NCBI GenBank assembly: GCA_963664225.1
Contig: OY760937.1
Location: 4,608,001-4,672,000, forward strand
From: Verrucomicrobiia bacterium
Lineage (GTDB): Bacteria; Verrucomicrobiota; Verrucomicrobiia; Limisphaerales; UBA1319
Length of the DNA stretch: 64,000 nucleotides
Direction: 5' to 3'
A model generated the notes under the pieces. The model was given only the letters and a program-made list of their open reading frames with translations. It made no database searches and had not been told where the DNA came from. A program made the position numbers and the translations under genes. Of this stretch, positions 27,810 through 57,134 are shown piece after piece. Each line of letters starts with the position of its first letter. The first letter of the stretch is position 1.

Positions 27810-28700
27810 ATGTTTGCTTTGATTCAACTTGTTAAGAAATGGGGGGAATTTGTGAAATTCTCCCATACGGTGTTTGCACTGCCTTTTGCCATTGCCGCAA
27901 TGGTGGTGGCGTCGCGCGATAACCGTGGCTGGCCCGGTTGGCGCACTTGCGCCTTGATTCTCATGGCGATGGTCTGCGCGCGCACCTGCGCCATGGCCTT
28001 CAACCGGATCGTCGATCGCAAATTCGACGCCGCCAATCCCCGGACCGCCATGCGGCATCTGCCTTCCGGCCAGGTATCGCTCTTGAGCGCCTGCATATTG
28101 TGGCTTCTCAGCGGCGCCGGTCTGGTGCTGGCGGCTTACCTGCTCAATACGGTTTGTTTTTACCTTTCGCCGGTGGCTCTGGCGGTCGTCTGCTTTTACT
28201 CGCTCACCAAGCGGTTCACCGATTACACGCACGTGTATTTGGGCATATCACTGGCACTGGCGCCTTTGGGGGCCTGGCTCGCGGTGCGTGGCACGCTCAG
28301 CCTGAGCGTCGTGGTCCTGGCGGTCGCGGTGGTTTTCTGGTTGATCGGCTTCGACATCATTTACGCCATTCAGGATTACGAATTCGACCAGAAATACAAG
28401 CTCCACAGCCTGGTGGTGGCCTGGGGGGTGGATAATGCGCTCAAAGCCGCGTTCCTGGCGCACATGCTCATGTGGGGATTGCTGCTGGCGTTCGGTTTGC
28501 TTTCACACTTTCGCGTGGCATACTTGTTTGGCCTGTTGATCATCCTGGCGAGCCTCGTGTTCGAGCACTGGCTGGCGCGGCGTCGCAGTTTGAAATGGAT
28601 CAACGTGGCCTTTTTCCGGCTGAACGCGGTCATCAGTGTGGTGTATATGGTGGTCACCATCAGCGAAGTCGTGTTCCCCGGATTCCGTATCACACAATGA
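27810..28700 (+). CDS. UbiA-family prenyltransferase (MqnP-like)
   Basis: VKFSHTVFALPF, NRIVDRKFDAANPRT, GFDIIYAIQDYEFD; adjacent to mqnE. Confidence 0.9.
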   Translation: MFALIQLVKKWGEFVKFSHTVFALPFAIAAMVVASRDNRGWPGWRTCALILMAMVCARTCAMAFNRIVDRKFDAANPRTAMRHLPSGQVSLLSACILWLLSGAGLVLAAYLLNTVCFYLSPVALAVVCFYSLTKRFTDYTHVYLGISLALAPLGAWLAVRGTLSLSVVVLAVAVVFWLIGFDIIYAIQDYEFDQKYKLHSLVVAWGVDNALKAAFLAHMLMWGLLLAFGLLSHFRVAYLFGLLIILASLVFEHWLARRRSLKWINVAFFRLNAVISVVYMVVTISEVVFPGFRITQ

Positions 28701-29821
28701 ACCATTTATTGTCACATTCGGATCTGGGTGATCTGCATGAGAAAGTCGTTGCGGGGGAGCGCATTAACGATGCAGACGCGTTGCGTTTGCTCGAGTGCAA
28801 GGACATCAACGCCGTGGGCGCGCTCGCGGACCTCGTCAACCGCCGCAAAAACAATGGCCGCGCCTCCTATATCGTTAATCGCTACATCAATTACTCCAAT
28901 TACTGCATCCTGAGCTGCCAGTTTTGCGCCTTCGCCAGGAAAAAGCGGGATGCGGATGGTTTCCAGTATTCCGTGCCGGAAATGGTGGAGATGGCGCGCC
29001 AGGCCCTCGAAATCGGCATCACAGAACTCCATATTGTGGGCGGTTTGCACCCGTCGCTGCCCTTTTCCTACTACACGGGTATGTTGCGTGCCTTGAAGGA
29101 CTTGGATGCGCGGCTTCAGCTCAAGTGTTTTACCGCCATTGAAATCCTGCACCTGGCCTGGTTATCGCGGCAAACCACTCAGGAGACGTTGGTTGCGCTG
29201 CGCGAAAGTGGCCTGGATTCTCTGACTGGCGGTGGGGCGGAAATCTTCCGGCCGGAAGTGCGCCGGGCCATCGCCAAGGGCAAGGAATCCGCTGCGGAAT
29301 ACCTTGATGTTCATCGCATTTGGCATCGACTGGGGGGGCGCAGCACCTGCACCATGCTCTACGGACATGTCGAGTCGCTGACGGATCGCGTGGACCATCT
29401 GCGGCAACTGCGTGCGCTGCAGGATGAAACGCATGGATTTGTCGGGTTCGTTCCTCTGGCATACCATCCGGAAAACAACCAGATTCCGGTGCGGCACGCG
29501 CCCACAGGGGCCGATTCTCTGCGCACTATTGCATTGAGCCGCATATACTTGGACAACTTCGATCACATCACCGCCTATTGGGTGGGGCTTGGGGTCAAAT
29601 TGGCGCAACTGGCTCTGAGCTATGGCGCGGACGATTTGCATGGGACCATCGTCGAGGAGAAGATTTTTCACATGGCCGGTGCGGTCACCCCGCAGACCCA
29701 ATCCGCTCAGGGAATGATTCATGCCATCCAGGAAGCGGGGTTCAAACCGGTGCAGCGCAACACGTTTTATGAGCCGGTCGGTGGTGAGACTCCGCGTTTG
29801 CAGGTCGTGGGCGTCCATTAA
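28697..29821 (+). CDS. mqnE: Aminofutalosine synthase (radical SAM)
   Basis: NYSNYCILSCQFC (CxxxCxxC), ELHIVGGLHP, TMLYGHVE, LRALQDET, SYGADDLHGT. Confidence 0.88.
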   Translation: MNHLLSHSDLGDLHEKVVAGERINDADALRLLECKDINAVGALADLVNRRKNNGRASYIVNRYINYSNYCILSCQFCAFARKKRDADGFQYSVPEMVEMARQALEIGITELHIVGGLHPSLPFSYYTGMLRALKDLDARLQLKCFTAIEILHLAWLSRQTTQETLVALRESGLDSLTGGGAEIFRPEVRRAIAKGKESAAEYLDVHRIWHRLGGRSTCTMLYGHVESLTDRVDHLRQLRALQDETHGFVGFVPLAYHPENNQIPVRHAPTGADSLRTIALSRIYLDNFDHITAYWVGLGVKLAQLALSYGADDLHGTIVEEKIFHMAGAVTPQTQSAQGMIHAIQEAGFKPVQRNTFYEPVGGETPRLQVVGVH

Positions 29822-29866
29822 TGGATTGGCTCTGGCGCTCCGGACAAGATTCTTCCGCAATGGGGA

Positions 29867-29972
29867 GACGCCGCCCAGGACATGGCCTTTTCAAGTGATC
29901 GACCGCGAGGAGGGGATTTTTGCGTTCAACCGGTTGACCACCGGTTGACTGCGGTTGACTGCGGTTGAACGG
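29867..29972 (+). repeat. ~100-bp direct repeat, left copy (contains TCAACCGGTTGA palindrome and four CGGTTGA motifs)
   Basis: Aligns by eye with 35215-35310 (e.g. ttgcgttcaaccggttgaccac.ggttgactgc). Confidence 0.85.
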
Positions 29973-30027
29973 GAAATTGGGTGACAGATCGATTAGGACG
30001 TCAGGTTTCAAACGCGACAAGACAGCC

Positions 30028-30450
30028 ATGAACCCCAGAGTCATCGTCAGGATCGCCGCGACCCTCACCGCATTGTTGGCGGTGGCGGCGCTCGTGGTTC
30101 TGATGGTGGCTGCGGCGCGATTTGTCAGCCAGGAGCCAAACTCGTCCCAGTTCCACAGAAGGCTGGGAGTTTTGGGGCTGTTCGCCATTGTCCCGGTCCT
30201 GTTCATTTGGGCCACGATTCAGGCGTGGCGCGGGACTCCCAAGGGGATTGTTTCGCTGAGTTCGGGGTGGATTCTGTTCGGGCTGGGCGGCAGCATTGGC
30301 TAACTGTTCTGGTTTTTCATGGAGTGGAAAATCCAGGATGCCCTCATGGCAATTATTTGGATTGGCGTATTCCTGTTCGGTGTTTTGATTGCCAGACAGG
30401 AAAACAAAATTGTGCGCCCGACCTCCCGCAGTAAACCAAGCCAGCCATGA
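30028..30450 (+). pseudogene. Small membrane protein with in-frame TAA at 30301; first unit of the array
   Basis: Frame continues past TAA (LFWFFMEW...SKPSQP) to TGA 30448-50, which overlaps the next ATG; 5' end is a degenerate array repeat. Confidence 0.7.
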
Positions 30451-30670
30451 TTCCAAAACTCCTCGATGGACTGTCTGTGGCGTGAGCAAAATCCGACTGT
30501 TGAATTCCGGGAGTATTCCAGAACCGACTCCGTCTAATCAGGAGATGAAAACTGAAGTCGTCCTTGTCCGAGCATTCCAGGGATTTTGCAATGATTTTAC
30601 ACCTTTCTGACATTTGTCCCCCTCAAGAACGCAATCAATGTGGACATGAAAAGTCCGCGACGTCGGAACC

Positions 30671-30778
30671 ATGAAACCCAAACTGATCCTCTGCCTCGCG
30701 CTCGTTTTGAGCGACGGGCTGTTCGATTCCAACGCGCAGAGAAAAGACGGGCAAGACGGTCGTCCAGAACCTCTTTGA
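30671..30778 (+). pseudogene. 35-aa remnant: repeat-encoded signal peptide plus short tail
   Basis: Translates MKPKLILCLALVLSDGLFDSNAQRKDGQDGRPEPL*. Confidence 0.6.
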
Positions 30779-30793
30779 TGAGCTGCCCGCGTC

Positions 30794-31090
30794 GTGAAAG
30801 CGATCAACATTTCAAAGATGCAAAAAGCGAGAACACCTTCTTCCAAAAGATACTTCTGGCAACTTGTCATTTGCCTGGCGTTGGGTCTCGTAATGTATTG
30901 GCCGCTTTATCTGGGAGAACTCGCCGCAGCAATTTACATTTATGGCTTCACCGTTGGCGTTTATTTGTTGATTCAGCTATCAACGCGGTTTCGCAATCCG
31001 CTACACGGCGTATTAATCATCTGTGTTTTAGCCCCGATTGCGTTCTACCTGGGCTGCTGCGCGGTGGCTATGGGCGGAATGGGACGTTAG
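30794..31090 (+). CDS. Small hypothetical membrane protein (array cargo)
   Basis: Three hydrophobic segments; start uncertain. Confidence 0.6.
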   Translation: MKAINISKMQKARTPSSKRYFWQLVICLALGLVMYWPLYLGELAAAIYIYGFTVGVYLLIQLSTRFRNPLHGVLIICVLAPIAFYLGCCAVAMGGMGR

Positions 31091-31102
31091 CACAAGCGAA
31101 TC

Positions 31103-32320
31103 ATGAAACCCAAACTCAACCGCTGCCTCGCGCTTGCCTTTGTTGGTGGCGCTGCCTGCATTTACGCCGCCAGCACTCCGCTGGATCGGGTCGCAGCGGA
31201 GCAACGCGAATTGTCCGTGTTACTGGCCAAAGCCAGTCCGAGCAGTTTCGGCACTAACTCGCCGGACTTGTCCCGCCGTGACGATAATTTTTCCCCCTAT
31301 CTCACCAGGGCAGAGAACGAGCGGTTTGTCCAATTGCTGCGCGATGCCGAAATATCGGCGGCGGTAACGCGTGAACAAGCACTGGCTGCGGTTAAGCAGC
31401 GGCAACTTGACGAGAACTTGCCGGGTTTCCAGTACAACGCTTTGATGGACCTCGTCAATCGAAGATGGCCGCATGATGAAGCAGTGATTGGCTTTTATCG
31501 CGACGCGTTGGCAAGGCGCGGCGAAGTGGCAATCTCTGATTTGTTTTCTCCCACTCCGGGCATTTGGGATGATTCGTTGCTTGAGCCGGTCATCGCAGTG
31601 ATTGAGAAGGCTGGCAAACCGAACCAAGTTCATTGGAACGTTGTGGACCACGCGCTCGCCGTGCTCGACCGTCATCACTCCGTTTGGGAAACGAATACCG
31701 CGATTCCTCCGCGGCTGAGCAAAGCTGTGTTGGCGATGTTTCCCTCCTTGACGAATACTGCGGTTTCCGGCCCGCGACCAGGCGAGCAAATGTGGTGCTA
31801 CGCCCTGCAAATGCTCGCAAAGACCCACGACTCTGAAATGATCCCGGTGCTGCGGCCGTTTTTGACGAACAAAGGGATGGCGGGCGATGGCTGTTATTGG
31901 ATCGTCGAGGCCAATCCGCCATTACGGGCTTGCGATAGAGCGGCCATCACAATCAGACAGCTCCTCGGGGAACGGAACTCCGTTGAGCCAATCGGAATGC
32001 CGGGCCTGCCTTACTGGAACGTGCGCGAGTCATATCCGAAATGGGATGAATGGGACGGAAAGATAGCTGAGTTGCAGCAACAACTTGATGCGCTCGGAAG
32101 TGCGTTACATTTCATCTGCACAAACCATCTGGATACCGCGCAACAAATGATGACGACGCCTGAAGCCATTCAGAGGATTCCAGGCGAAGGCGAAGGCGCA
32201 AGCGCCTGGCGAGTCTCGTGGAAGCACAAAATACCTGTCGGCGCTGCTGCAATTAAAGGCGGCCAACTCCTCATTATCGTCCACGATTCTGGCAAAGTGG
32301 AAAAAGGGTTCAGCGAATGA
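31103..32320 (+). CDS. Secreted hypothetical protein (array cargo)
   Basis: Starts MKPKLNRCLALAFVGG; 405-aa ORF; stop overlaps the next ATG. Confidence 0.75.
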   Translation: MKPKLNRCLALAFVGGAACIYAASTPLDRVAAEQRELSVLLAKASPSSFGTNSPDLSRRDDNFSPYLTRAENERFVQLLRDAEISAAVTREQALAAVKQRQLDENLPGFQYNALMDLVNRRWPHDEAVIGFYRDALARRGEVAISDLFSPTPGIWDDSLLEPVIAVIEKAGKPNQVHWNVVDHALAVLDRHHSVWETNTAIPPRLSKAVLAMFPSLTNTAVSGPRPGEQMWCYALQMLAKTHDSEMIPVLRPFLTNKGMAGDGCYWIVEANPPLRACDRAAITIRQLLGERNSVEPIGMPGLPYWNVRESYPKWDEWDGKIAELQQQLDALGSALHFICTNHLDTAQQMMTTPEAIQRIPGEGEGASAWRVSWKHKIPVGAAAIKGGQLLIIVHDSGKVEKGFSE

Positions 32321-33417
32321 AAACAAACTTCCTCTGTCTCGCGCTCGTTTTGAGCGGTGGTGTGTTCGACTGTTCCCGCATCGTTCGGGCGGACGAAGCT
32401 GTTGCCAAAACGGTTTCATCCAATACAGACCTGAGTTTTGAATCGCTTTTGAACGCGGCATTTCCGGGCAGGCAATTGCATGAGCTTAATTTGTATGGGC
32501 CGGATGCCCGCCAGTTGTCGAGCGAGCGATGGAATCAACTAGCCGTTGCCGCTGCACGCGAGTTGTCGCTCCAGACAACCAATGGCTTGGTGATAACCAA
32601 GGAAACAGTGGCTGGATTGCCTAACGGCTCATTGGCGACCGACTCACCGGAACAAGCCGCGCTTCGCCGATTGTGTTGGAGCAACGAGGAACAGATGACA
32701 TTCCTTCGTGATGCGTCGAACAACCGCCTGTTCAATGACGCAGGGGTCATCGGGCCTCTGATCGCCATGCTCGATTATCCCGGGGAGAAAACCATCATCA
32801 GACAGGAGGCCGCACAGATTCTGTGCCAGTTGACCCTGCGCGGTCGGCCGGAACAGACGCAGATATACCTCTACGTGGATGGGGAAAACAATCCAAAGCG
32901 CCCCCAATATGCTGCGTGGTGGCGAGAGTGGTGGGCAAAAAACAAAAGCAAACATCCCGTTTTCGATTCAACGGTTGAGGCGTTGGTCTCGAACCGCATC
33001 GCAGGCATTGAATTACAGTTGGACAAGGATGTAGCGAAGAATTACTCGGAGTTGAACTATTTGAAGCCCAAATACATTCGATTTGACGTCCATCCAGTGA
33101 ATGTGATTGATGTCAGAGTGGATTCTTCCATCCTCTCAGCAATTGGTTCTCGCACTGCGCCTGATGGAACGTGGCGAGAAGCCGGGGAAGAGGATCACAT
33201 CTATCTTCGCATCACGGCCGGCTTTATAACACCGCCGTTTAGTCCGGTTTCAGACGACACTCCAAAACGTTGGCAATCATTAAAGAAAGAGGTTTTCCGG
33301 GAAACCATCCCGGATACGGATATTGTCATCACGGTTCAGGCAGCCTCGAAGGACGCCGAGTTTGTCCGACAAGTGCGGGCGTGTTTGGCAAAGCTGTCAC
33401 CCATGAAAGAGAATTAA
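32317..33417 (+). CDS. Secreted hypothetical protein with HEAT-like helical segment (array cargo)
   Basis: Starts MKTNFLCLALVLSGGVFDC; VIGPLIAMLD...IRQEAAQILCQLT...WWREWWAKNK. Confidence 0.75.
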   Translation: MKTNFLCLALVLSGGVFDCSRIVRADEAVAKTVSSNTDLSFESLLNAAFPGRQLHELNLYGPDARQLSSERWNQLAVAAARELSLQTTNGLVITKETVAGLPNGSLATDSPEQAALRRLCWSNEEQMTFLRDASNNRLFNDAGVIGPLIAMLDYPGEKTIIRQEAAQILCQLTLRGRPEQTQIYLYVDGENNPKRPQYAAWWREWWAKNKSKHPVFDSTVEALVSNRIAGIELQLDKDVAKNYSELNYLKPKYIRFDVHPVNVIDVRVDSSILSAIGSRTAPDGTWREAGEEDHIYLRITAGFITPPFSPVSDDTPKRWQSLKKEVFRETIPDTDIVITVQAASKDAEFVRQVRACLAKLSPMKEN

Positions 33418-33418
33418 C

Positions 33419-33703
33419 ATGAAGCTGAACCTTGTCCTCTGCCTCGCTCGAGGTTTGCTTTACACATATTGTCTAATTCTCCCGTACGGCCTGTTTGTGG
33501 CTTGGACGGGAATTAGAATGTGGAAAGATCCTCAGGCATCCTGGTGTGAGATTGTTCTTGGCGCTCTTGGTATATCTTTTTACACCTTCGCCACATGGTG
33601 GTATTTCAGCCTGCCCTTGGTCGCCGCCATAGCGTGGTGGTTGTATCTGCGGAGACAGGCCAAGGACTCACTCAACAAGCAATCGCCCCACGCTAAACCA
33701 TGA
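33419..33703 (+). CDS. Small membrane protein (array cargo)
   Basis: Starts MKLNLVLCLA; hydrophobic; TGA is provided by the next repeat. Confidence 0.7.
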   Translation: MKLNLVLCLARGLLYTYCLILPYGLFVAWTGIRMWKDPQASWCEIVLGALGISFYTFATWWYFSLPLVAAIAWWLYLRRQAKDSLNKQSPHAKP

Positions 33704-33738
33704 AACCCAAACTCATCCTCTGCCTCGCGCTCGTATGA
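33700..33738 (+). other. 'Empty' repeat unit: 12-codon mini-ORF MKPKLILCLALV*
   Basis: ATG 33700 overlaps the upstream TGA; its own TGA overlaps ATG 33735. Confidence 0.8.
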
Positions 33739-34160
33739 AACCATATTTTACTTCCATTGCTTTAGGCGTGGCAGCGTCCGCGATAGGCAGTGCCATCCTC
33801 GCGTCTGGTTCTGCCATAACCGCCGGGGCGACAAAGCATGTTTTGGAGGCATGGCCGTGGCTATTTTCTGTTTCTGTCATTCCCTGCGCGATTCTTCCAG
33901 CAATTGTCCTCCGGCTTGGTTCTAAAGTTTCATTTCGTGGCGGGCATTTTCTCTGCGTCTTCCTGCTCGCCTTTGCTGCCGTGGCCTTGGCTGGTTCTGC
34001 CGGCATTGTTATTGTGGAATCCGCGAGACGCGGCATCGCCAACGTAAATGTTTCCGGATATTTGGTTTGGTGCTGGGTCTATGCAATTGCTCTGCTGCCA
34101 GTCTCTTATCCTTTGGCGGCACTGGTTCTTTACCTTTCCGAAAAGAGACGCGAGCCATGA
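33735..34160 (+). CDS. Four-TM hypothetical membrane protein (array cargo)
   Basis: Starts ATGAAACC (MKP); hydrophobic; stop overlaps the next ATG. Confidence 0.72.
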   Translation: MKPYFTSIALGVAASAIGSAILASGSAITAGATKHVLEAWPWLFSVSVIPCAILPAIVLRLGSKVSFRGGHFLCVFLLAFAAVALAGSAGIVIVESARRGIANVNVSGYLVWCWVYAIALLPVSYPLAALVLYLSEKRREP

Positions 34161-34546
34161 AACCGAAAATTACCCTCTGCCTCGCGCTTGTTTTGAGCGG
34201 CGTTTTGCTCGGCTGCTCAACCAGCAACCGACATTCTGCCACGGCTTCTGTGTTGAACCACGGGCAGTCGGCTGTAGAGATAGTTCTCGCCGGCCACCAT
34301 TTTGCGCCTCCCACTACCGTCCGAGGGACAGGCGACGTCGTGTGGACAATTGCGGCAAGGCCACGCTCAAATTCCGCCGTCGAAATAGCGCAGGTTGAGA
34401 CGCACCCGGATGGTCGAATCACGGTCGAGATTTACAGTTGCCAGTATGTCGCGAGCGAGTGGGCCAGGCTTGGTCCCAAGTTTGCCGATCCCGGCCTGAA
34501 ACAGGAGGCAATGACGATGCTAGACCAGATTCTCAGAATACCATGA
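34157..34546 (+). CDS. Hypothetical lipoprotein (array cargo)
   Basis: MKPKITLCLALVLSGVLLGC with lipobox LLGC. Confidence 0.78.
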   Translation: MKPKITLCLALVLSGVLLGCSTSNRHSATASVLNHGQSAVEIVLAGHHFAPPTTVRGTGDVVWTIAARPRSNSAVEIAQVETHPDGRITVEIYSCQYVASEWARLGPKFADPGLKQEAMTMLDQILRIP

Positions 34547-35043
34547 AACCCAAACTGTCGCCTTACCACTTTCAACGCCGTCGGCCTGGTGCATTGGATC
34601 ATCTGCAGATTGCGGAAGCAACGGCGCAGGCGGTTGCCGAAATTCGCGCTCTGACCGGCTGGCTCTTGAGGGAAGGTTGCCCCGCCGTGGCGCTGTGGGG
34701 CTTTTCGCTAGGCGGACGATTGGCGGGATTAACAGCATGCCGCGATTCGCGGCTGGCCGCTATCGTTCTGACCAAACCCGGCGTGCGCAGCAATCTCTCG
34801 TTCCCAGAACTGGTCCTCTGGCGTGGCATTCGGGAAACGTTGCAGGGGCAGCGCGCGGAGTGGGCGGCGTTGAACCTGACCTCGTGGACTCTGACCTCGG
34901 CCCAGCCAGCCATCCCCAAGGAGAACATTTTGTTGATCGAAGCGGTCCATGACTTGTTGACGCCGAGAGAACCCCTCGTAAAGGGGTTCGCCCATAGAAC
35001 GGTGCGGTTATGGGCGCACATGGACGATGAAAAGGGTGGGTGA
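34543..35043 (+). pseudogene. Alpha/beta hydrolase fragment fused behind MKPKL
   Basis: PYHFQRR, ALWGFSLGG nucleophile elbow, IEAVHDL; N-terminal part absent. Confidence 0.7.
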
Positions 35044-35054
35044 ATGAGGTCTTG

Positions 35055-35082
35055 AATGGACAATGGATAATTGACAATTGAC
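35055..35082 (+). repeat. Heptamer tandem repeat, four copies
   Basis: aatggac aatggat aattgac aattgac. Confidence 0.7.
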
Positions 35083-35096
35083 CAAGGTGGATAAGA

Positions 35097-35165
35097 ATGC
35101 CGCTCCGCTGGAGCTTGGGTTTTGTCGTTGTTCGATTTCTATAAACATGCCACTCCTACGGAGTT
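35097..35165. repeat. REP-like element (gctcc-ggagc hairpin...ctataaacatgcc...hairpin)
   Basis: Same architecture as 49128-49230 and 49744-49846. Confidence 0.7.
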
Positions 35166-35214
35166 TCTGATTGCGGTCCACCGGGCGGAGGCATCCGGAA
35201 CATCCGCAGACGAG

Positions 35215-35310
35215 GACGCCCCCCGGCCATGACCGTTTCAAGCGATCCTCCGCAAGGAGTGGATTCTTGCGTTCAACCGGTTGACCACGGGTTGACTGCA
35301 GTTTGAATGG
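35215..35310 (+). repeat. ~100-bp direct repeat, right copy
   Basis: Aligns with 29867-29972. Confidence 0.85.
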
Positions 35311-35549
35311 CCAGGATGAACAGGATGGGGAGTGGATAAGGAGGAGGCATCCGCAGATGCCCGACCATCGCCGCGCGGATTGGCACGGAGCGATTTCTGA
35401 TTGTCTGAAATCACGACTTCCTGGTTGGTGGTGAGTGCGGGATGCTCTCCACCGGCGAGCCGATGCAGTTCGCCGCCGACCTGGGGTTGCGGGTATGAGC
35501 CATGGGGGAAGTGTTCGATGCGAGCGGGAGATTGTTTGAGCAGACCCGG

Positions 35550-36803
35550 CTATTTTTCGCCCAGAGAATTTCGCGCCAGCCTTTCCAGGTCTGCGTCTGT
35601 CGCGTTGGGAAGAAAGCGCTTTCGATACAGTTCATCATGCAATATCTGCAAAATAGCGACCAGGGGCGCCGCGACCAAAACACCCAGAACACCGAAGGCA
35701 GCCACACACAAAAGCATGGAAAAGATGACTGCCGTGGAATGCAGCTTCATGCTGCGCGCGATGATCAGTGTGGAGATCACATTATTTTCCAGGAGCTGTA
35801 CGGCGAGATACGCGAGGAGAACCCAGAGGGGAGTCCATCCTCCCTTGGTCAGAGCGAACATGAGGGCGGGCAGGGCGCTGAGGATGGGGCCGATATAGGG
35901 AATGGCTTCGAGGACACCCGCGATGAGTCCCAAGACCAAGGCATCGGTAAAACCCAGGAGGGGCCACATCAGCACAAAAACCAAAAGACCGACGGCCAGC
36001 ATCGACAGAGCAGTGGCCAATGCCCAGCCCGGCACAAATTTTGCTATGCGTTGCATGATGGTCAACGTCTGAGCGTGGTGGCGCTCGGGGACCAGAGAAA
36101 AGATGGCCCCGAAAATCGGGCGGGGGTTCATGAGCGTATAAGTCACGCCAAAGAAGACGGTCCCCAGAACGAACAGAATCTGGGCCACATTGAACGCCAC
36201 GGCCGTAAAGCGGCCGGCCACTCCCTGTAGCGTCTGGCTTAAACTGGAACGAATCGAGCCGGTCGCCGTTGTGGTTTTGTCCGGAGTCGGCTCGCTGGCG
36301 GGCGCGACTTCCGGCTTGTCCGATTTCGTCGGGGAACTTGAAATTTCGGAAGTGACTTCGGCCTGAATTTTGTCCTCGGAATGAGCCGCCTGGCGCTCCA
36401 ATTTGATCAAGGGCTTTTGAATCCGCGCCCAGTAAACCGGAAACTCATCCGATAGCTTTGAGAACGAGGTTTTCAATGGCGCGAAAAAGGCCAGTCCCGT
36501 CAGGGCGAAAAGCGCTATCATTGAGGCCGCAAGGATCGCTGTGGTGATTTTTCTCCCGCCCGTCAAAGCTCGCATCCTGGAAATGATTGGATTGACGGCA
36601 AGTGAAATCAGGAGAATGAGCAGAAACGACAGCAGAATGGGTGACAACAGCGAGAACGTCTGGATGAAAGCAAAGGACGCCGCTCCCAGCAGCACATAAA
36701 ACGAGGTCGAATGCGGATTCGCTTCTTTTCTCAAGTGGCCGGGCATTTCATCTTTTTCCCAAGTTATTTTGCCGTCCGACGGTGCGGCTTGCGGTGTTCT
36801 CAT
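35550..36803 (-). CDS. AI-2E (PerM) family transporter
   Basis: EAIPYIGPILS, QLLENNVI, FGVLGVLVAAPL; start may be 36746. Confidence 0.88.
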   Translation of the reverse strand: MRTPQAAPSDGKITWEKDEMPGHLRKEANPHSTSFYVLLGAASFAFIQTFSLLSPILLSFLLILLISLAVNPIISRMRALTGGRKITTAILAASMIALFALTGLAFFAPLKTSFSKLSDEFPVYWARIQKPLIKLERQAAHSEDKIQAEVTSEISSSPTKSDKPEVAPASEPTPDKTTTATGSIRSSLSQTLQGVAGRFTAVAFNVAQILFVLGTVFFGVTYTLMNPRPIFGAIFSLVPERHHAQTLTIMQRIAKFVPGWALATALSMLAVGLLVFVLMWPLLGFTDALVLGLIAGVLEAIPYIGPILSALPALMFALTKGGWTPLWVLLAYLAVQLLENNVISTLIIARSMKLHSTAVIFSMLLCVAAFGVLGVLVAAPLVAILQILHDELYRKRFLPNATDADLERLARNSLGEK

Positions 36804-55559: not shown

Positions 55560-55870
55560 GGTTGAACCCCTGATACGGTTTCCACAGGTAATCATCCGTT
55601 GGCGAGGAGAGCCCCGGGAAGCTCCCCGCAGCTAACGGTGAATAACTGTGCCGCCGCCAAAAAATCGAGCGGTGAAAAACTTTTGTCGCCGGAGTATAAT
55701 GCTTCTGGCGGCATCGCCCCGGATGGATCACGGTCATACACCCCTTGTCTTAAGAAGACTGAGGAGAGTTTACCGGCCCGTCCGACGGCGCCTGTCAAAA
55801 AGTCTGAGAGAACTATTGCCCGCGAGGCTTCCTGTATCAGGTTGACTGACGACAGCGCTCCGATGCCCCG
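55560..55870 (+). ncRNA. Putative bridge RNA in the IS110 left end (limits approximate)
   Basis: Position upstream of the recombinase; AGAGAACTAT (55807-16) equals the predicted donor junction; GAGAGTT (55764-70) is the reverse complement of the right flank. Confidence 0.55.
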
Positions 55871-55883
55871 TAACGGAGGATCT

Positions 55884-57134
55884 ATGAAATCATGGTTGGA
55901 GATATCCTGTTTTGCCGGATTGGATTGGGCCCGGGATCATCACGATGTGGTCATCGTCGATCGAGAGGGCAAGATCGTGGAACAGTTCCGCTTCGAGCAT
56001 TCCCAGGAAGGCTGGGAGCAATGGCGGAAAAAGACGGCGCCCTTCGCCCCTTTGGCGGTGGCCATTGAGACGAGCTTCGGCACGGCTGTGGACCAGCTCC
56101 TGAGGGGGGAGGCAACGGTCTATCCGGTCAATCCCAAGAGCGCCCAGCGGTATCGGGATCGCAAGGTGCCCAGCGGCAGCAAGACCGATTTTCTGGATGC
56201 CTGGTCTCTGGCCGATGCCTTGCGGATCGACGGGCACGGTTGGAAAGCGCTGGTCCCAACGGACGCGCTGACCAGCCAGTTGCAGATGCTCTGCCGGGAT
56301 GAGGTTCATCTCATCGGTCAGCGCACGCTGTTCGTAAATCAATTGCAACAAGCTCTCTTGGAATACTATCCGGCGGCCCTGGAGGCCTTTGAGGATTGGA
56401 CCATGGCCTCGGCGTGGGATTTCATCATTGAGTTTCCAACGCCTCGTGCGCTGGTCAAAGCCGGCAAGCGACGGTGGGAAAAGTTCCTGCACGTTCATAA
56501 GCTCTGGCGGCCGGAAACCGCTGAAAAACGGATGGGCATTTTTGCACGGGCCGATCAGTTTTGCGGCTCGGCGGCCCTGACGGCGGCCAAGGGCACCCTG
56601 GCGGTGAGCCTGGCCAAAATGTTACGCACGTTGCAGCAGCAACTGGATGTTTATCACGCGCAAATCCAGGCCTTGTTTGCACAGCACCCCGACCATGACT
56701 TGTTCGGTTCGCTGCCCGGAGCGGGCTCGTTTTTGGCTCCACGGCTGCTGGGAGAAATCGGCGGCGGGTCGGGCCGGTTTGAAAGCGCACAGCATCTGCA
56801 GGGCATTGCGGGCACGGCTCCTGTGAGTTATCAATCGGGACAAATCGACAAGGTCCGCATCCGCCACCACTGCGACAAGTTCCTCCGCCATGCCGTGCAT
56901 CTGTGGAGCGATTGCAGTCGCAAGAAATGTCTTTGGGCACAGGTTTACTACCAGAAAAAACGGGAAGAGGGCAAAAGCCACGCTTGCGCTTTGCGGTGTC
57001 TGGGCCAGCGGTGGCTCAAAATCATCTGGAAAATGCTCCAAACCCACGCGCCCTACGATCCGGAAATACATGCCAAAAACCAGCAGCTGCATGGTTCGTG
57101 GGTGCTGAGTCTGCAGACCAAAACCGCCAGGTAA
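55884..57134 (+). CDS. IS110 family transposase/recombinase
   Basis: FAGLDWARDHHDV, VAIET, KTDFLDA, SLPGAG, GTAPVSYQSG; RBS ggagga. Confidence 0.95.
   Translation: MKSWLEISCFAGLDWARDHHDVVIVDREGKIVEQFRFEHSQEGWEQWRKKTAPFAPLAVAIETSFGTAVDQLLRGEATVYPVNPKSAQRYRDRKVPSGSKTDFLDAWSLADALRIDGHGWKALVPTDALTSQLQMLCRDEVHLIGQRTLFVNQLQQALLEYYPAALEAFEDWTMASAWDFIIEFPTPRALVKAGKRRWEKFLHVHKLWRPETAEKRMGIFARADQFCGSAALTAAKGTLAVSLAKMLRTLQQQLDVYHAQIQALFAQHPDHDLFGSLPGAGSFLAPRLLGEIGGGSGRFESAQHLQGIAGTAPVSYQSGQIDKVRIRHHCDKFLRHAVHLWSDCSRKKCLWAQVYYQKKREEGKSHACALRCLGQRWLKIIWKMLQTHAPYDPEIHAKNQQLHGSWVLSLQTKTAR

Follow-up and report, generated by a model that had tools for sequence, protein, structure and literature searches.

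A candidate recombinase-free cassette array in Verrucomicrobia whose junction repeat encodes a translation start and a predicted export signal

Why do consecutive genes with unrelated products begin with nearly the same DNA? The question was raised by a 64,000-nt stretch (the window) of the 5.78-Mb genome of a soil Verrucomicrobium, in which an array of such genes occupies 30028..35043 on the plus strand. An earlier note on this DNA described an integron-like accretion system in which the recombination site is itself the translation start and export signal, so that any captured DNA would be expressed and potentially secreted. Our comparison of this array with related ones makes a modified version probable: a recombinase-free, integron-like cassette array, in which a coding repeat may serve at once as recombination homology, translation start and export signal.

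A coding repeat at the start of unrelated genes

The repeat, here called the head, combines a cc-ATGA stop/start overlap with a signal-peptide start made up of n- and h-regions (MKPKLILCLALVLSG). It extends from -5 to +45 and often on to +62, the longer form adding a GLFGC lipobox, and its consensus peptide is MKPK, LILCLALVLSG(GLF) and GC. The charged n-region, hydrophobic h-region and lipobox with Cys are those of Sec and lipoprotein signal peptides; on sequence grounds, the head is predicted to encode the first two of these for a Sec-type signal peptide. Cys occupies codon 20 in 39 of 130 heads. None of the N-terminal sorting-signal models of NCBIfam fitted, and 25 of the 26 window-array and head-bearing proteins had no NCBIfam match (E<=0.01), the only matches being those of hydrolase models to a truncated hydrolase body. 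The array lies at a synteny break 3' of mqnE; when the mqnE-downstream site was compared with that of a same-genus genome, mqnA and leuA followed mqnE there, without a head. Its features are as follows.

29874..29956, no strand: left flank, copy of a dispersed intergenic repeat (genome-wide, not array-specific)
30028..30303, plus: first unit, 91-aa predicted membrane protein, degenerate head in its first 21 nt, ATGAACCCCAGAGTCATCGTC
30319..30450, plus: 43-aa hydrophobic ORF, its TGA within the ATGA of the next remnant head
30447..30485, plus: degenerate head remnant, 12-codon ORF (repeat-family member, sequence reading)
30666..30775, plus: best head copy, ATG at 30671, followed only by a 34-codon ORF
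30794..31090, plus: 98-aa predicted membrane protein without a head (ORF and Pfam scan)
31098..32320, plus: head (alike to about +32) and 405-aa secreted-type protein (repeat family, blastp)
32313..33417, plus: head, one codon shorter, and 366-aa family F2 protein (repeat family, blastp)
33414..33703, plus: partial head (alike to about +29) joined to a 94-aa predicted membrane protein (repeat family)
33695..33734, plus: solo head, 35 nt, 12 codons, its own TGA overlapping the ATG at 33735
33735..34160, plus: 141-aa predicted membrane protein, sharing with the head only ATGAAACC (first 8 nt)
34152..34546, plus: full-length head (to +62, lipobox LLGC) and 129-aa lipoprotein (repeat family, sequence)
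34538..35043, plus: first 18 nt of the head and a 5'-truncated alpha/beta hydrolase (repeat family, Pfam, NCBIfam)
35044..35303, no strand: right flank, two dispersed intergenic repeats (genome-wide, not array-specific)

Seven copies of the approximately 50-nt head lie within 30671-34543. A repeat search placed five in a 60-nt family (starts 30666, 31098, 32309, 33695 and 34152), the sixth in a 40-nt family (33418) and the seventh in an 18-nt family (34540), in agreement with the ATGs listed in the earlier note (30671, 31103, 32317, 33419, 33700, 34157 and 34543). Its three degenerate copies were also recovered: at 30028, 16 of the first 21 nt agree with the head (counted by eye), 30447 is the 12-codon remnant and 33735 is confined to the 8 shared nt. 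At 32317, 33700, 34157 and 34543 the TGA of the upstream gene lies inside the ATGA. ATGA was present in 117 of 141 heads, 56 of which overlapped the stop of an upstream ORF of at least 60 codons. A preceding stop inside cc-ATGA suggests that the genes may be translationally coupled.

Four head-bearing genes of the window are intact (31103, 32317, 33419 and 34157), and besides them there are three orphan or remnant heads and one head fragment fused into the truncated hydrolase; the head at 30671 was classed as truncated or orphan because only a 34-codon ORF stands behind it. With its solo heads and 5'-truncated hydrolase, the window array is a partly decayed example. The hydrolase body begins at about residue 127 of a 328-aa relative and matches the NCBIfam RcgR profile at positions 139-261 of 332. 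The head of this gene (34543-35043) is reduced to 18 nt and the hydrophobic core is absent, which contradicts the idea that any captured DNA becomes secreted. The 31103 protein had no match to Pfam or NCBIfam families; over 341 aa it shares 53% identity with a protein that bears a head in an array of another genome (L065). The 32317 protein shares 50% identity over 325 aa with a HEAT-repeat protein that likewise carries a head (L036). No Pfam family above the cut-off was found for the protein of the first unit (30028..30303), the GC3 of which (0.78) resembles that of native neighbours. GC3 was 0.49-0.62 in window cassettes B-I versus 0.69-0.74 in mqnE and ubiA. For the 34157 lipoprotein, the protein atlas gave a weak lead to 'lipoprotein' clusters (0.87).

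The gene bodies proved unrelated, as the earlier note had stated. No pairwise blastp match at E<=1 was found among the eight window ORF bodies longer than 40 aa after removal of their first 18 residues, a set that left out the 34-aa ORF at 30671 and the 12-codon remnants at 30447 and 33700. The 114 head proteins compared formed 60 blastp clusters, 39 of them singletons. Pfam matches were found in 20 of 96 scanned head proteins and none in the other 76; the families include Sel1, GDSL lipase, alginate lyase, M14 peptidase, pectate lyase, TPR, serpin, WG repeat, PL4 lyase, GxGYxYP, LRR, HEAT and beta-propeller. No immunity family was among these Pfam matches, which leave 76 of the 96 proteins unassigned; the repeat proteins and the serpin could act as inhibitors. 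In a public library, the head profile matched 478 representative protein clusters, nearly always at the N-terminus. It is thus extremely improbable that these genes are simply tandem paralogues or that their signal peptides are alike by chance. Signal peptides are alike in composition, and the 31103 and 32317 bodies may both be helical-repeat proteins, but the bodies share no blastp match, the head proteins fall into 60 clusters with many different Pfam folds, look-alike peptides elsewhere in this genome differ at 8-13 of 27 nt versus 1-2 in the array locus, and shuffled sequence gave no matches. We rejected this explanation on these grounds. A weak atlas lead (0.82-0.83) connects the 31103 protein with HEAT clusters, and family F2, to which the 32317 protein belongs, includes HEAT proteins.

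Distribution and nucleotide-level conservation of the head

The 43-mer of the earlier note, at <=3 mismatches, gave a single match at 30671 with 1 mismatch (0 expected in 100 shuffles), the other copies being more diverged or shorter. Over the 5.78-Mb genome, a 25-nt core at <=4 mismatches gave three matches and the 14-mer ATGAAACCCAAACT four exact ones, all within the array locus. No head copy was found elsewhere in the genome.

The head was present in other Verrucomicrobiia/Limisphaerales genomes. In a sample of 401 genomes of the order, 8 from 7 families had its core (<=1 mismatch), and none of 9 same-family relatives had it; a reversed-pattern control gave no matches. The exact 25-mer is carried by 32 MAG records (49 stretches), most of them Verrucomicrobiia/Limisphaerales, and by at least 153 metagenome contigs, nearly all comparison data being MAG or metagenome contigs. 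The 25-mer usually stands in tandem arrays of up to 12 copies.

The similarity of the heads extends beyond the peptide to the DNA, with no less conservation at synonymous positions than at the rest. Because the loci were selected for at least one exact 25-mer, figures for conservation have an upward bias, from which only the any-codon pattern and the non-seed copies are free. At codons 7-15 the consensus codon was used in 0.79-0.99 of 130 heads, versus 0.15-0.58 of the usage in bodies, and third codon positions were about as conserved as first and second ones. Among exact LCLALVLSG peptides in the loci, 42 of 61 had no DNA difference, and 0 of 125 near-matches exceeded 4 differences in 27 nt. 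The any-codon pattern gave 17 matches in the 401 genomes (control, 5), 13 with the canonical codons and 4 diverged. Head DNA identity was 85-87% in all body-identity bins from 23% to 99% (116 pairs). Differences per 52 nt of head averaged 11.03 within a genome versus 11.36 between genomes, and 53 of 300 permutations were as low; with no clear excess of similarity within genomes, simple within-genome gene conversion is not what homogenises them. In one orthologous cassette, beside trxB, the head is identical from about +31 to +56 in three genomes amid matching DNA that is about 83-85% identical, which implies direct constraint or repeated conversion. A function at sequence level, whether in RNA, in protein binding or as a recombinase site, could account for the constraint just as well.

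Cassette variation and crossovers at heads

Relatives carry different cassette sets at corresponding chromosomal positions, and homology between them is interrupted at the heads. At the trxB-side site, the last cassette and the right flank are common to three genomes, the common part starting exactly at the cassette ATG, and 1, 5 or 7 different cassettes stand ahead of it. The uvrB-side site has one head in one genome and five in another. Of 259 internal ends of inter-locus alignments, 65 fell at -10..+65 of a head, versus 7.0 +/- 2.6 (maximum 15) for random placement. In related bacteria whole genes come and go at heads, so the array behaves like a gene-cassette system, one that has no enzyme gene of its own close by.

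One crossover could be followed within a head. L043 and L052 are two arrays of one MAG with one common cassette (about 99% identity). Over -60..+17 (53 informative sites) the next head of L043 tracks one L052 head, and over +29..+109 (51 sites) it tracks another; L043 lacks the intervening 1,819 nt of L052, which contain a serpin and a second cassette. The clean chimeric head marks a head-to-head crossover that added or removed two cassettes, a single case that could in principle mix strains within the bin.

In a half-head test we compared pairs at least 97% identical on their common side. Six pairs shared the upstream cassette, one of them without a head mismatch; in four of the five informative ones the head is identical through at least +16, and the fifth mismatches at +5. 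All five pairs with a common downstream cassette have head differences inside +0..+15. Those crossovers that are resolved best fall around +18..+34, next to a small palindrome (CGCTC-GTTTT-GAGCG) within the most conserved core of the head. The two best-mapped intervals, +18..+28 and >=+31, do not overlap, their limits resting on one or two sites each, and further pairs point to crossovers no later than +16 and no earlier than +47. Such variable crossover and fusion points are more in keeping with general homologous or illegitimate recombination than with a single fixed site; the crossovers beside the palindrome, together with a sharp 3' head end (+44..+46 in 91 of 303 heads), leave room for a structure- or site-specific process.

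We looked for a linked recombinase. No Phage_integrase was found in the 41 window ORFs of at least 130 aa (E<=1e-6) or in the array ORFs, in line with the earlier note, and among 14 related loci one had a Phage_integrase ORF within about 8 kb of its array (L065). In a comparison limited to assembled contigs, neither excised circles nor their joints turned up. The integron-like accretion proposed in that note is supported in part: it stands as to cassette variation, breaks at heads and one crossover within a head, and a dedicated linked recombinase is not supported. The DNA-level head, the unrelated bodies and these exchanges also bear out its view that the junction is itself start codon and predicted export signal.

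Candidate mechanisms and known systems

The reading we favour is as follows. The locus would be an operon-like tandem array of unrelated genes for exported proteins and lipoproteins, joined by a portable coding module of about 50 nt. Being near-identical in DNA, heads would act as patches of homology; recombination between two heads would delete, duplicate or swap whole cassettes, and head-body-head DNA could recombine into any array. The exchanged unit would begin with the 3' part of one head, span the body and end with the 5' part of the following head. The likeliest agent would be the general homologous recombination of the cell, with occasional illegitimate joins, and not a linked integrase. 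Cassettes with drifted heads would be immobilised, so that the heads sampled appear held at nucleotide level, from a pool shared across Limisphaerales-type Verrucomicrobia. We infer that exchange would be RecA-dependent and horizontal, that heads would be selected for recombination proficiency, and that cassettes would be expressed, coupled and exported.

Alternatively, a dedicated recombinase, site- or structure-specific and with its gene elsewhere in the genome, might use the head as its site, making the array a true integron analogue. There is precedent for mobility by host enzymes in Acinetobacter plasmid modules, which are flanked by Xer sites. The palindrome in the core, the junctions near both edges of it (+18..+28 and >=+31) and the sharp end of the head accord with such a site, as does a constraint that is uniform over codon positions. 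The tyrosine-recombinase family found beside L065 occurs in 5 of 8 head-positive genomes versus 92 of 393 others (p ~0.02, our own binomial estimate, post hoc and ignoring kinship). However, that family is present in 97 of the 401 genomes, is missing from three of the eight head-positive ones (52-89% complete), adjoins 1 of 14 arrays and lies about 885 kb off in genome G000. The non-overlap of the two best-mapped intervals, the crossovers suggested outside them and the window head fragments of 8, 18, 32 and 35 nt fused to other DNA also speak against a fixed site, and we regard a recombinase site as quite unlikely. The broader proposal that a trans-acting enzyme or a palindrome-specific process reads the head, as a second, independently evolved integron-type system with its att in coding sequence, seems rather unlikely.

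We hold it rather doubtful, too, that the head is conserved for a function in mRNA or transcription, with cassette shuffling a by-product. Candidates are re-initiation after ATGA, a target of a small RNA or RNA-binding protein, and a pause or anti-termination site. Third codon positions are conserved accordingly, heads of one genome show no excess similarity, head identity is independent of body divergence and the ATGA overlaps are frequent; moreover, a terminator-like scan selected a head hairpin with a T-rich tail at 34185-34199, and in about 14 other loci the first head stands behind a conserved promoter-like leader. But five heads folded as RNA did no better than shuffles (z -1.53 to +0.52), an Rfam scan of 29000-36000 gave no matches, and 24 of 123 complete head ORFs are debris (<=60 aa) that keeps the head sequence. 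An mRNA function also leaves unexplained why one sequence stands on hundreds of unrelated genes and why homology breaks at it.

Among known systems, integrons carry an intI tyrosine recombinase gene beside the array, and their attC sites are imperfect inverted repeats at the 3' end of cassettes, conserved in structure and not in sequence. Head arrays resemble them in same-strand arrays of unrelated, mostly promoterless cassettes, in content that varies between relatives with breakpoints at the repeat, and in a repeated junction that crossover splits between neighbours. They differ in having no intI in the window, a recombinase near only one of 14 related arrays and variable crossover points; unlike attC, the head keeps its sequence rather than a fold, is placed at the 5' coding end and supplies a start codon and signal peptide.

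A full-text literature search aimed at such a repeat found no description of the head, but partial precedents qualify the statement that no system of this design has been described. Bacteroidales rAID-1 arrays have integron-like intergenic repeats, a conserved XerD-family recombinase gene and immunity-gene cargo (bioRxiv 10.1101/471110); in head arrays, by contrast, no such recombinase was found at the window cluster, nor generally at the 14 related loci, the repeat is coding, and the cargo includes enzymes, a serpin and repeat proteins. In Borrelia, Erp/Elp lipoproteins whose mature parts are unrelated have leader peptides in common (PMC12018966), and recombination in Erp genes is named in titles cited by PMC10016077. 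The Erp genes (OspE/OspF/Elp, with an 'upstream homology box') are three protein families on prophage plasmids of one genus, mono- or bicistronic, whereas heads stand on at least 60 clusters in the loci and 478 library representatives, in chromosomal tandem arrays of up to 12 with apparently ATGA-coupled junctions. Orphan cassettes of polymorphic toxins are reported to recombine as standalone units through a conserved stretch beside a variable part (PMC3482391); there the conserved part precedes the variable C-terminal toxin domain of a large protein and the cassette brings an immunity gene, whereas a head cassette is a complete gene whose conserved part is the signal-peptide start only.

If the favoured reading holds, soil and peat Verrucomicrobia would keep a common, exchangeable pool of hundreds of exported proteins, moved by nothing beyond a 50-nt coding homology patch. 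One sequence would then be recombination junction, translation start and export signal, integron-like gene accretion would be possible without an integrase, and the head would offer a concrete case of nucleotide-level selection within a signal peptide and a possible birth route for new secreted proteins. Were a trans-acting enzyme to read the head, an inserted cassette would gain a start codon, an export signal and translational coupling at once, and new exported proteins could arise where heads fuse with arbitrary DNA, a kind of fusion seen in the truncated hydrolase at 34543. The head is also a ready marker for mining the variable secretome of this abundant, poorly cultured soil lineage.

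The head array in the window

The head, a repeat of about 50 nt comprising a stop/start overlap (cc-ATGA) and the n- and h-regions of a signal peptide, is a coding module conserved at the nucleotide level and joined to unrelated cargo; arrays of cassettes (head plus gene body) differ cassette-wise at orthologous sites, and one crossover lies inside the head. Positions in the head are counted from its ATG. In the window array (30028–35043), the sizeable ORFs are all on the + strand and closely packed. The earlier note had placed head ATGs at 30671, 31103, 32317, 33419, 33700, 34157 and 34543, and these were borne out by direct-repeat copies starting at 30666, 31098, 32309, 33418, 33695, 34152 and 34540. 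Its 43-mer had one match at ≤3 mismatches, compared with none in 100 shuffles, and the remaining copies in the window were shorter or more diverged. As read from the sequence, the TGA of the preceding gene lies inside cc-ATGA at 32317, 33700, 34157 and 34543. With its degenerate, orphan and cut heads and its truncated hydrolase, the window array looks worn.

Features of the window array
33700 (+): solo head, a 35-nt piece whose own TGA overlaps the next ATG (33735)
34543 (+): head fragment, only 18 nt of the head kept
30671 and 33700 (+): orphan heads
33419 and 31103 (+): cut heads, cut at +29 and +32, respectively
Start of the array: two degenerate heads
34543 (+): last gene of the array, 18 nt of head joined to residue ~127 of an alpha/beta hydrolase

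The hydrolase relative of the last gene is 328 aa long in genome G031. Across the whole genome of the window (5.78 Mb), the core, the most conserved 25 nt of the head, had three matches at ≤4 mismatches and the 14-mer ATGAAACCCAAACT had four exact matches, all within the window array locus. GC3 of window cassettes B–I was 0.49–0.62, against 0.69–0.74 for ubiA and mqnE, which the array directly follows. The product of gene 31103 showed 53% identity to a head-bearing protein of L065, and that of gene 32317 showed 50% identity to a head-bearing HEAT-repeat protein of L036; in both of these loci from other genomes, the relatives are in array contexts unlike the window's. For the function of the window proteins, protein-atlas scores were all below 0.9, and NCBIfam gave no match except for the hydrolase.

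In a same-genus genome (L086, G001:C143), which was compared with window 28700–29821, mqnA and leuA come after mqnE. In the genome of the window (G000), mqnA and leuA lie at 3.09 Mb (C1:3084366–3086967), 1.55 Mb from mqnE; therefore, the window array stands at a synteny break, and a rearrangement endpoint coincides with the array. No head was found in the same-genus genome, and comparison with it gave no empty site, synteny stopping right after mqnE. Five relatives were searched for the downstream AI-2E transporter, and none yielded a homologue. An 83-nt direct repeat bracketing the array (29874–29956 and 35221–35303) was considered as the ends of an island and rejected, as its copies, more than 20 in the genome, are scattered over intergenic regions. 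Two dispersed intergenic repeat families, with more than 20 copies genome-wide, both flank the array (window 29874–29990 and 35044–35420) and recur at, for example, G000:C1:2566421–2568412 and 4123196–4123586; one contains GTTCAACCGGTTGACC-type motifs, and the other has a tandem run near 2.567 Mb with a period of about 200–230 nt. Six public sequencing runs in three studies contained the locus, all as assembled contigs and with no RNA dataset among them. Four runs were compared, giving one contig identical over 28000–35126 and fragments elsewhere, with no joints among them; contigs cannot show circles or rare variants.

Spread, anatomy and conservation of the head

The repeat was found outside the genome of the window, as the earlier note had thought worth checking. 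Its core (≤1 mismatch) occurred in 8 of 401 sampled genomes of the order, in seven families and often clustered (reversed-pattern control, 0). The exact 25-mer was present in 49 stretches of a species-representative genome collection, from 32 MAG records, and in at least 153 metagenome stretches. Labels of 24 of these records were Verrucomicrobiota, Verrucomicrobiia or Limisphaerales, and two were 'uncultured bacterium'; the six with other labels, whose head contigs are all ≤15.1 kb, are suspected to be mis-binned. A DNA search of 41 relatives gave no array match in nine same-family genomes, and it gave head copies in G013, a genome of another family in which four consecutive genes begin with the head.

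Fuzzy matching in the genome-collection loci and the window yielded 140 distinct heads, with as many as 12 in one array. The start codon was ATG in 120 and GTG in 9 of the 141 heads with enough upstream sequence; ATGA was present in 117 of them, and in 56 the head overlaps the stop codon of a preceding ORF at least 60 codons long. The consensus is aaacc ATGAAACCCAAACTCATCCTCTGCCTCGCGCTCGTTTTGAGCGGCGGTTTGTTTGGCTGTTC, or MKPKLILCLALVLSGGLFGCS. In a larger set, the left edge was sharp (290/325 start at −5..0), and the right edge peaked at +44..+46 (91/303), +50/51 (34) and +62 or beyond (56). The module defined by these edges is thus the n- and h-regions; each cassette brings its own c-region, and the long form has a predicted lipobox. 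No NCBIfam model covered the head. Complete head ORFs of ≤60 aa (24/123) are read as orphan heads or debris. Among the 150 matches listed, five library proteins (P0001–P0004 and P0044) match the head profile in two stretches, the best-scoring of which begins at residue 1, 16, 1, 51 and 70, respectively; each may be a read-through or wrongly called ORF that covers two heads.

The check on synonymous positions of the repeat showed third codon positions to be about as conserved as first and second ones; it covered the 130 heads (of 143) that had 45 nt of upstream sequence and began with a standard start codon. At codons 7–15, heads with the consensus residue used the consensus codon in 0.79–0.99 of cases, and the same codons made up 0.15–0.58 of body usage. 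Because the heads had been found by DNA likeness, the test was repeated with protein-level ascertainment. In the loci, six-frame translation gave 125 matches to LCLALVLSG with at most 2 residue changes; all had ≤4/27 DNA differences, and 42 of the 61 exact peptides had none; four look-alikes elsewhere in G000 differed at 8–13 of 27 nt. An any-codon peptide pattern gave 17 matches in the 401 genomes, 13 with canonical codons and four diverged (reversed control, 5). When 116 same-family pairs were binned by body-protein identity (23–99%), head DNA identity was 85–87% in every bin. Judged from these figures, which come from loci picked for one exact core, from non-independent kin and mostly from MAG data, the conservation of the head resides in the DNA. 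Concerted evolution within genomes was rejected as not significant (11.03 differences per 52 nt within genomes vs 11.36 between genomes; 53/300 permutations as low), and codon 6 (ATC vs CTC) was the sole codon that appeared genome-biased. Heads tended only weakly to travel with their bodies (6.17 vs 6.86 differences per 45 nt; 19/500 permutations as low).

Whole-cassette differences and a crossover within the head

Pfam analysis of the flanks of 14 loci (145 ORFs) found ordinary housekeeping neighbours, and some arrays occupy the same chromosomal site in different genomes. When cassette content was compared there, whole-cassette differences were found at the trxB- and uvrB-side sites, with homology breaking at heads. 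At the trxB and epimerase site, the DNA common to L074, L067 and L038 comprises the final cassette plus right-flank sequence of about 3 kb, with 83–85% identity; their homology begins exactly at the ATG of the last cassette, in front of which stand one, five and seven different cassettes, respectively. The site between uvrB and a gluconolactonase gene has one head in L058 and five in L078. In inter-locus alignments of ≥250 nt and ≥75% identity, 65 of 259 internal ends fell at −10..+65 of a head ATG, compared with 7.0 ± 2.6 (maximum 15) in 200 trials of random placement; part of this excess is expected, since alignments run on through the conserved head. The alignment ends at heads show that homology is cassette-sized.

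L043 and L052 come from a single MAG, in which the two arrays lie on separate long contigs. Their common cassette has 8 differences in about 770 nt after the head, vs 6 in the first 31 nt of the head. The next L043 head equals the third L052 head at 53 informative sites (−60..+17) and the fifth L052 head at 51 informative sites (+29..+109), and the 1,819 nt between the third and fifth heads, with a serpin and one more cassette, are missing from L043. This is a head-to-head crossover within 11 common bases, +18..+28.

When the set was enlarged to 193 loci, with 347 distinct heads in full context, it contained 13 pairs with only the upstream cassette in common and 10 with only the downstream one. 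Six upstream-sharing pairs were ≥97% identical on the common side, one of them uninformative for having no head mismatch. In four of the five informative pairs, the heads were identical through at least +16, and the fifth mismatched at +5; first mismatches reported for upstream-sharing pairs besides the latter were at +17, +29, +29, +44 and +45. All five comparably identical downstream-sharing pairs differed within +0..+15. Therefore, the exchanged unit begins in the 3' portion of one head and ends in the 5' portion of the following one. Crossover limits vary from pair to pair, most being set by one or two informative sites; crossovers may favour a zone around +18..+34.

Explanations for the head arrays, and elements beside them

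The claim that the bodies are unrelated stood, as eight window bodies of >40 aa, with their first 18 residues removed, had no pairwise blastp match at E≤1. Single-linkage blastp clustering sorted the 114 head-bearing ORFs of ≥60 aa into 60 groups, of which 39 were singletons. Pfam was run on 96 of 109 non-window head proteins, the 13 excluded being short or partial ORFs or extra members of represented families, and 20 had matches: Sel1, GDSL lipase, alginate lyase, M14 peptidase, pectate lyase/beta-helix, TPR, serpin, WG repeat, PL4 lyase, GxGYxYP, BspA-type LRR, HEAT and beta-propeller. In a library of 1.84 billion proteins, a head profile (32 positions, 96 heads) matched 478 cluster representatives (clustering at 50% identity) at E≤0.001, 31 of them at ≤1e-10, and nearly all matches were N-terminal. 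Ordinary tandem paralogy, in which the same-strand cassettes would be plain paralogues, is virtually excluded. It is also unlikely that an RNA- or transcription-level function is the main constraint on the DNA-conserved head: five heads folded as RNA were no better than shuffles (z −1.53 to +0.52), and Rfam (E≤1) had no match over 29000–36000. Scanning the region for sigma-70 promoters gave 3 sites vs 2.8 expected.

A trans-acting site-specific enzyme acting on the head is quite unlikely. No integrase had been visible to the earlier note, and none was found among the window array ORFs and 41 flanking ORFs of ≥130 aa. A tyrosine recombinase adjoins the array in one of 14 related loci (L065). 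Its family occurs in 97 of the 401 genomes of the order and in five of the eight head-positive genomes, the other three being 52–89% complete; in G000, the L065-type recombinase lies about 885 kb from the window array. The check for a co-occurring recombinase thus returned a weak, kinship-confounded, post hoc association (5/8), and the family is a weak lead for a head-linked enzyme. L065 is also the largest array seen (12 heads), flanked by a HipA-type toxin kinase gene and the tyrosine recombinase gene; the bracketing genes are at L065:13968–15209 (−) and L065:1725–2855 (+). In the window, the only mobile-element gene found was an IS110-family transposase gene at 55599–57131 (+), with DEDD_Tnp_IS110 and Transposase_20, about 20 kb from the array.

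We propose that general homologous recombination between heads drives the loss, duplication and replacement of cassettes. The invariant core of ~25–30 nt is close to the minimum length usually quoted for efficient RecA-dependent exchange. Cassettes would also move from genome to genome, and this would account for the patchy occurrence of the head across families; only those with a near-consensus head would keep moving, which would hold the head sequence constant. In addition, the head would give each cassette coupled translation and export. Such an array works like an integron, but it is without intI and attC, the integron's defining features. The rAID-1 arrays of Bacteroidales resemble it too, but carry a XerD-family recombinase (bioRxiv 10.1101/471110). 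Borrelia Erp/Elp lipoproteins have leader peptides in common, as the cassettes have the head (PMC12018966; PMC10016077). No description of a head-like repeat was found in full-text literature on such repeats or on Verrucomicrobia, a scope that largely leaves out subscription journals. Recombination-driven cassette arrays are known; what is unusual in this design is that start codon and signal peptide themselves form the junction.

In about 14 other loci, the first head is preceded by a conserved promoter-like element, TGAACG...GTCAGAGTTACAAT, with the ATG 6–7 nt beyond it. In many arrays, a conserved element of ~40 nt, AAATGAACGAACTGGTTTAATTTTGTGTCAGAGTTACAAT, ends 6–7 nt before the ATG of the first head (L078:9308, L058:8539, L069:8997, L071:8543, L063:820, L043:8518, L075:1281, L065:13710 and others), often directly after a terminator-like hairpin. 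It looks like a putative promoter: either it has a TACAAT −10 and would yield a near-leaderless mRNA, or it is of ECF type, with a TGAAC/GTC pair. By eye, TGAACG and GTCAG were both located upstream of 30028 but at another spacing, and this leader was not called the same element. An ECF sigma gene (L049:5726–6196) and a FecR gene (L043:9697–10494) adjoin two arrays. In some loci, the promoter-like element directly abuts a head cut at +45 (L053:6909–6966, L064:8028, L041:1941–1998 and L037:9738–9806), which creates a conserved ORF of 22–30 codons shortly before the next head, its product being the head peptide extended by (E/K)MNE..; this ORF could encode a leader peptide or be a mere junction scar.
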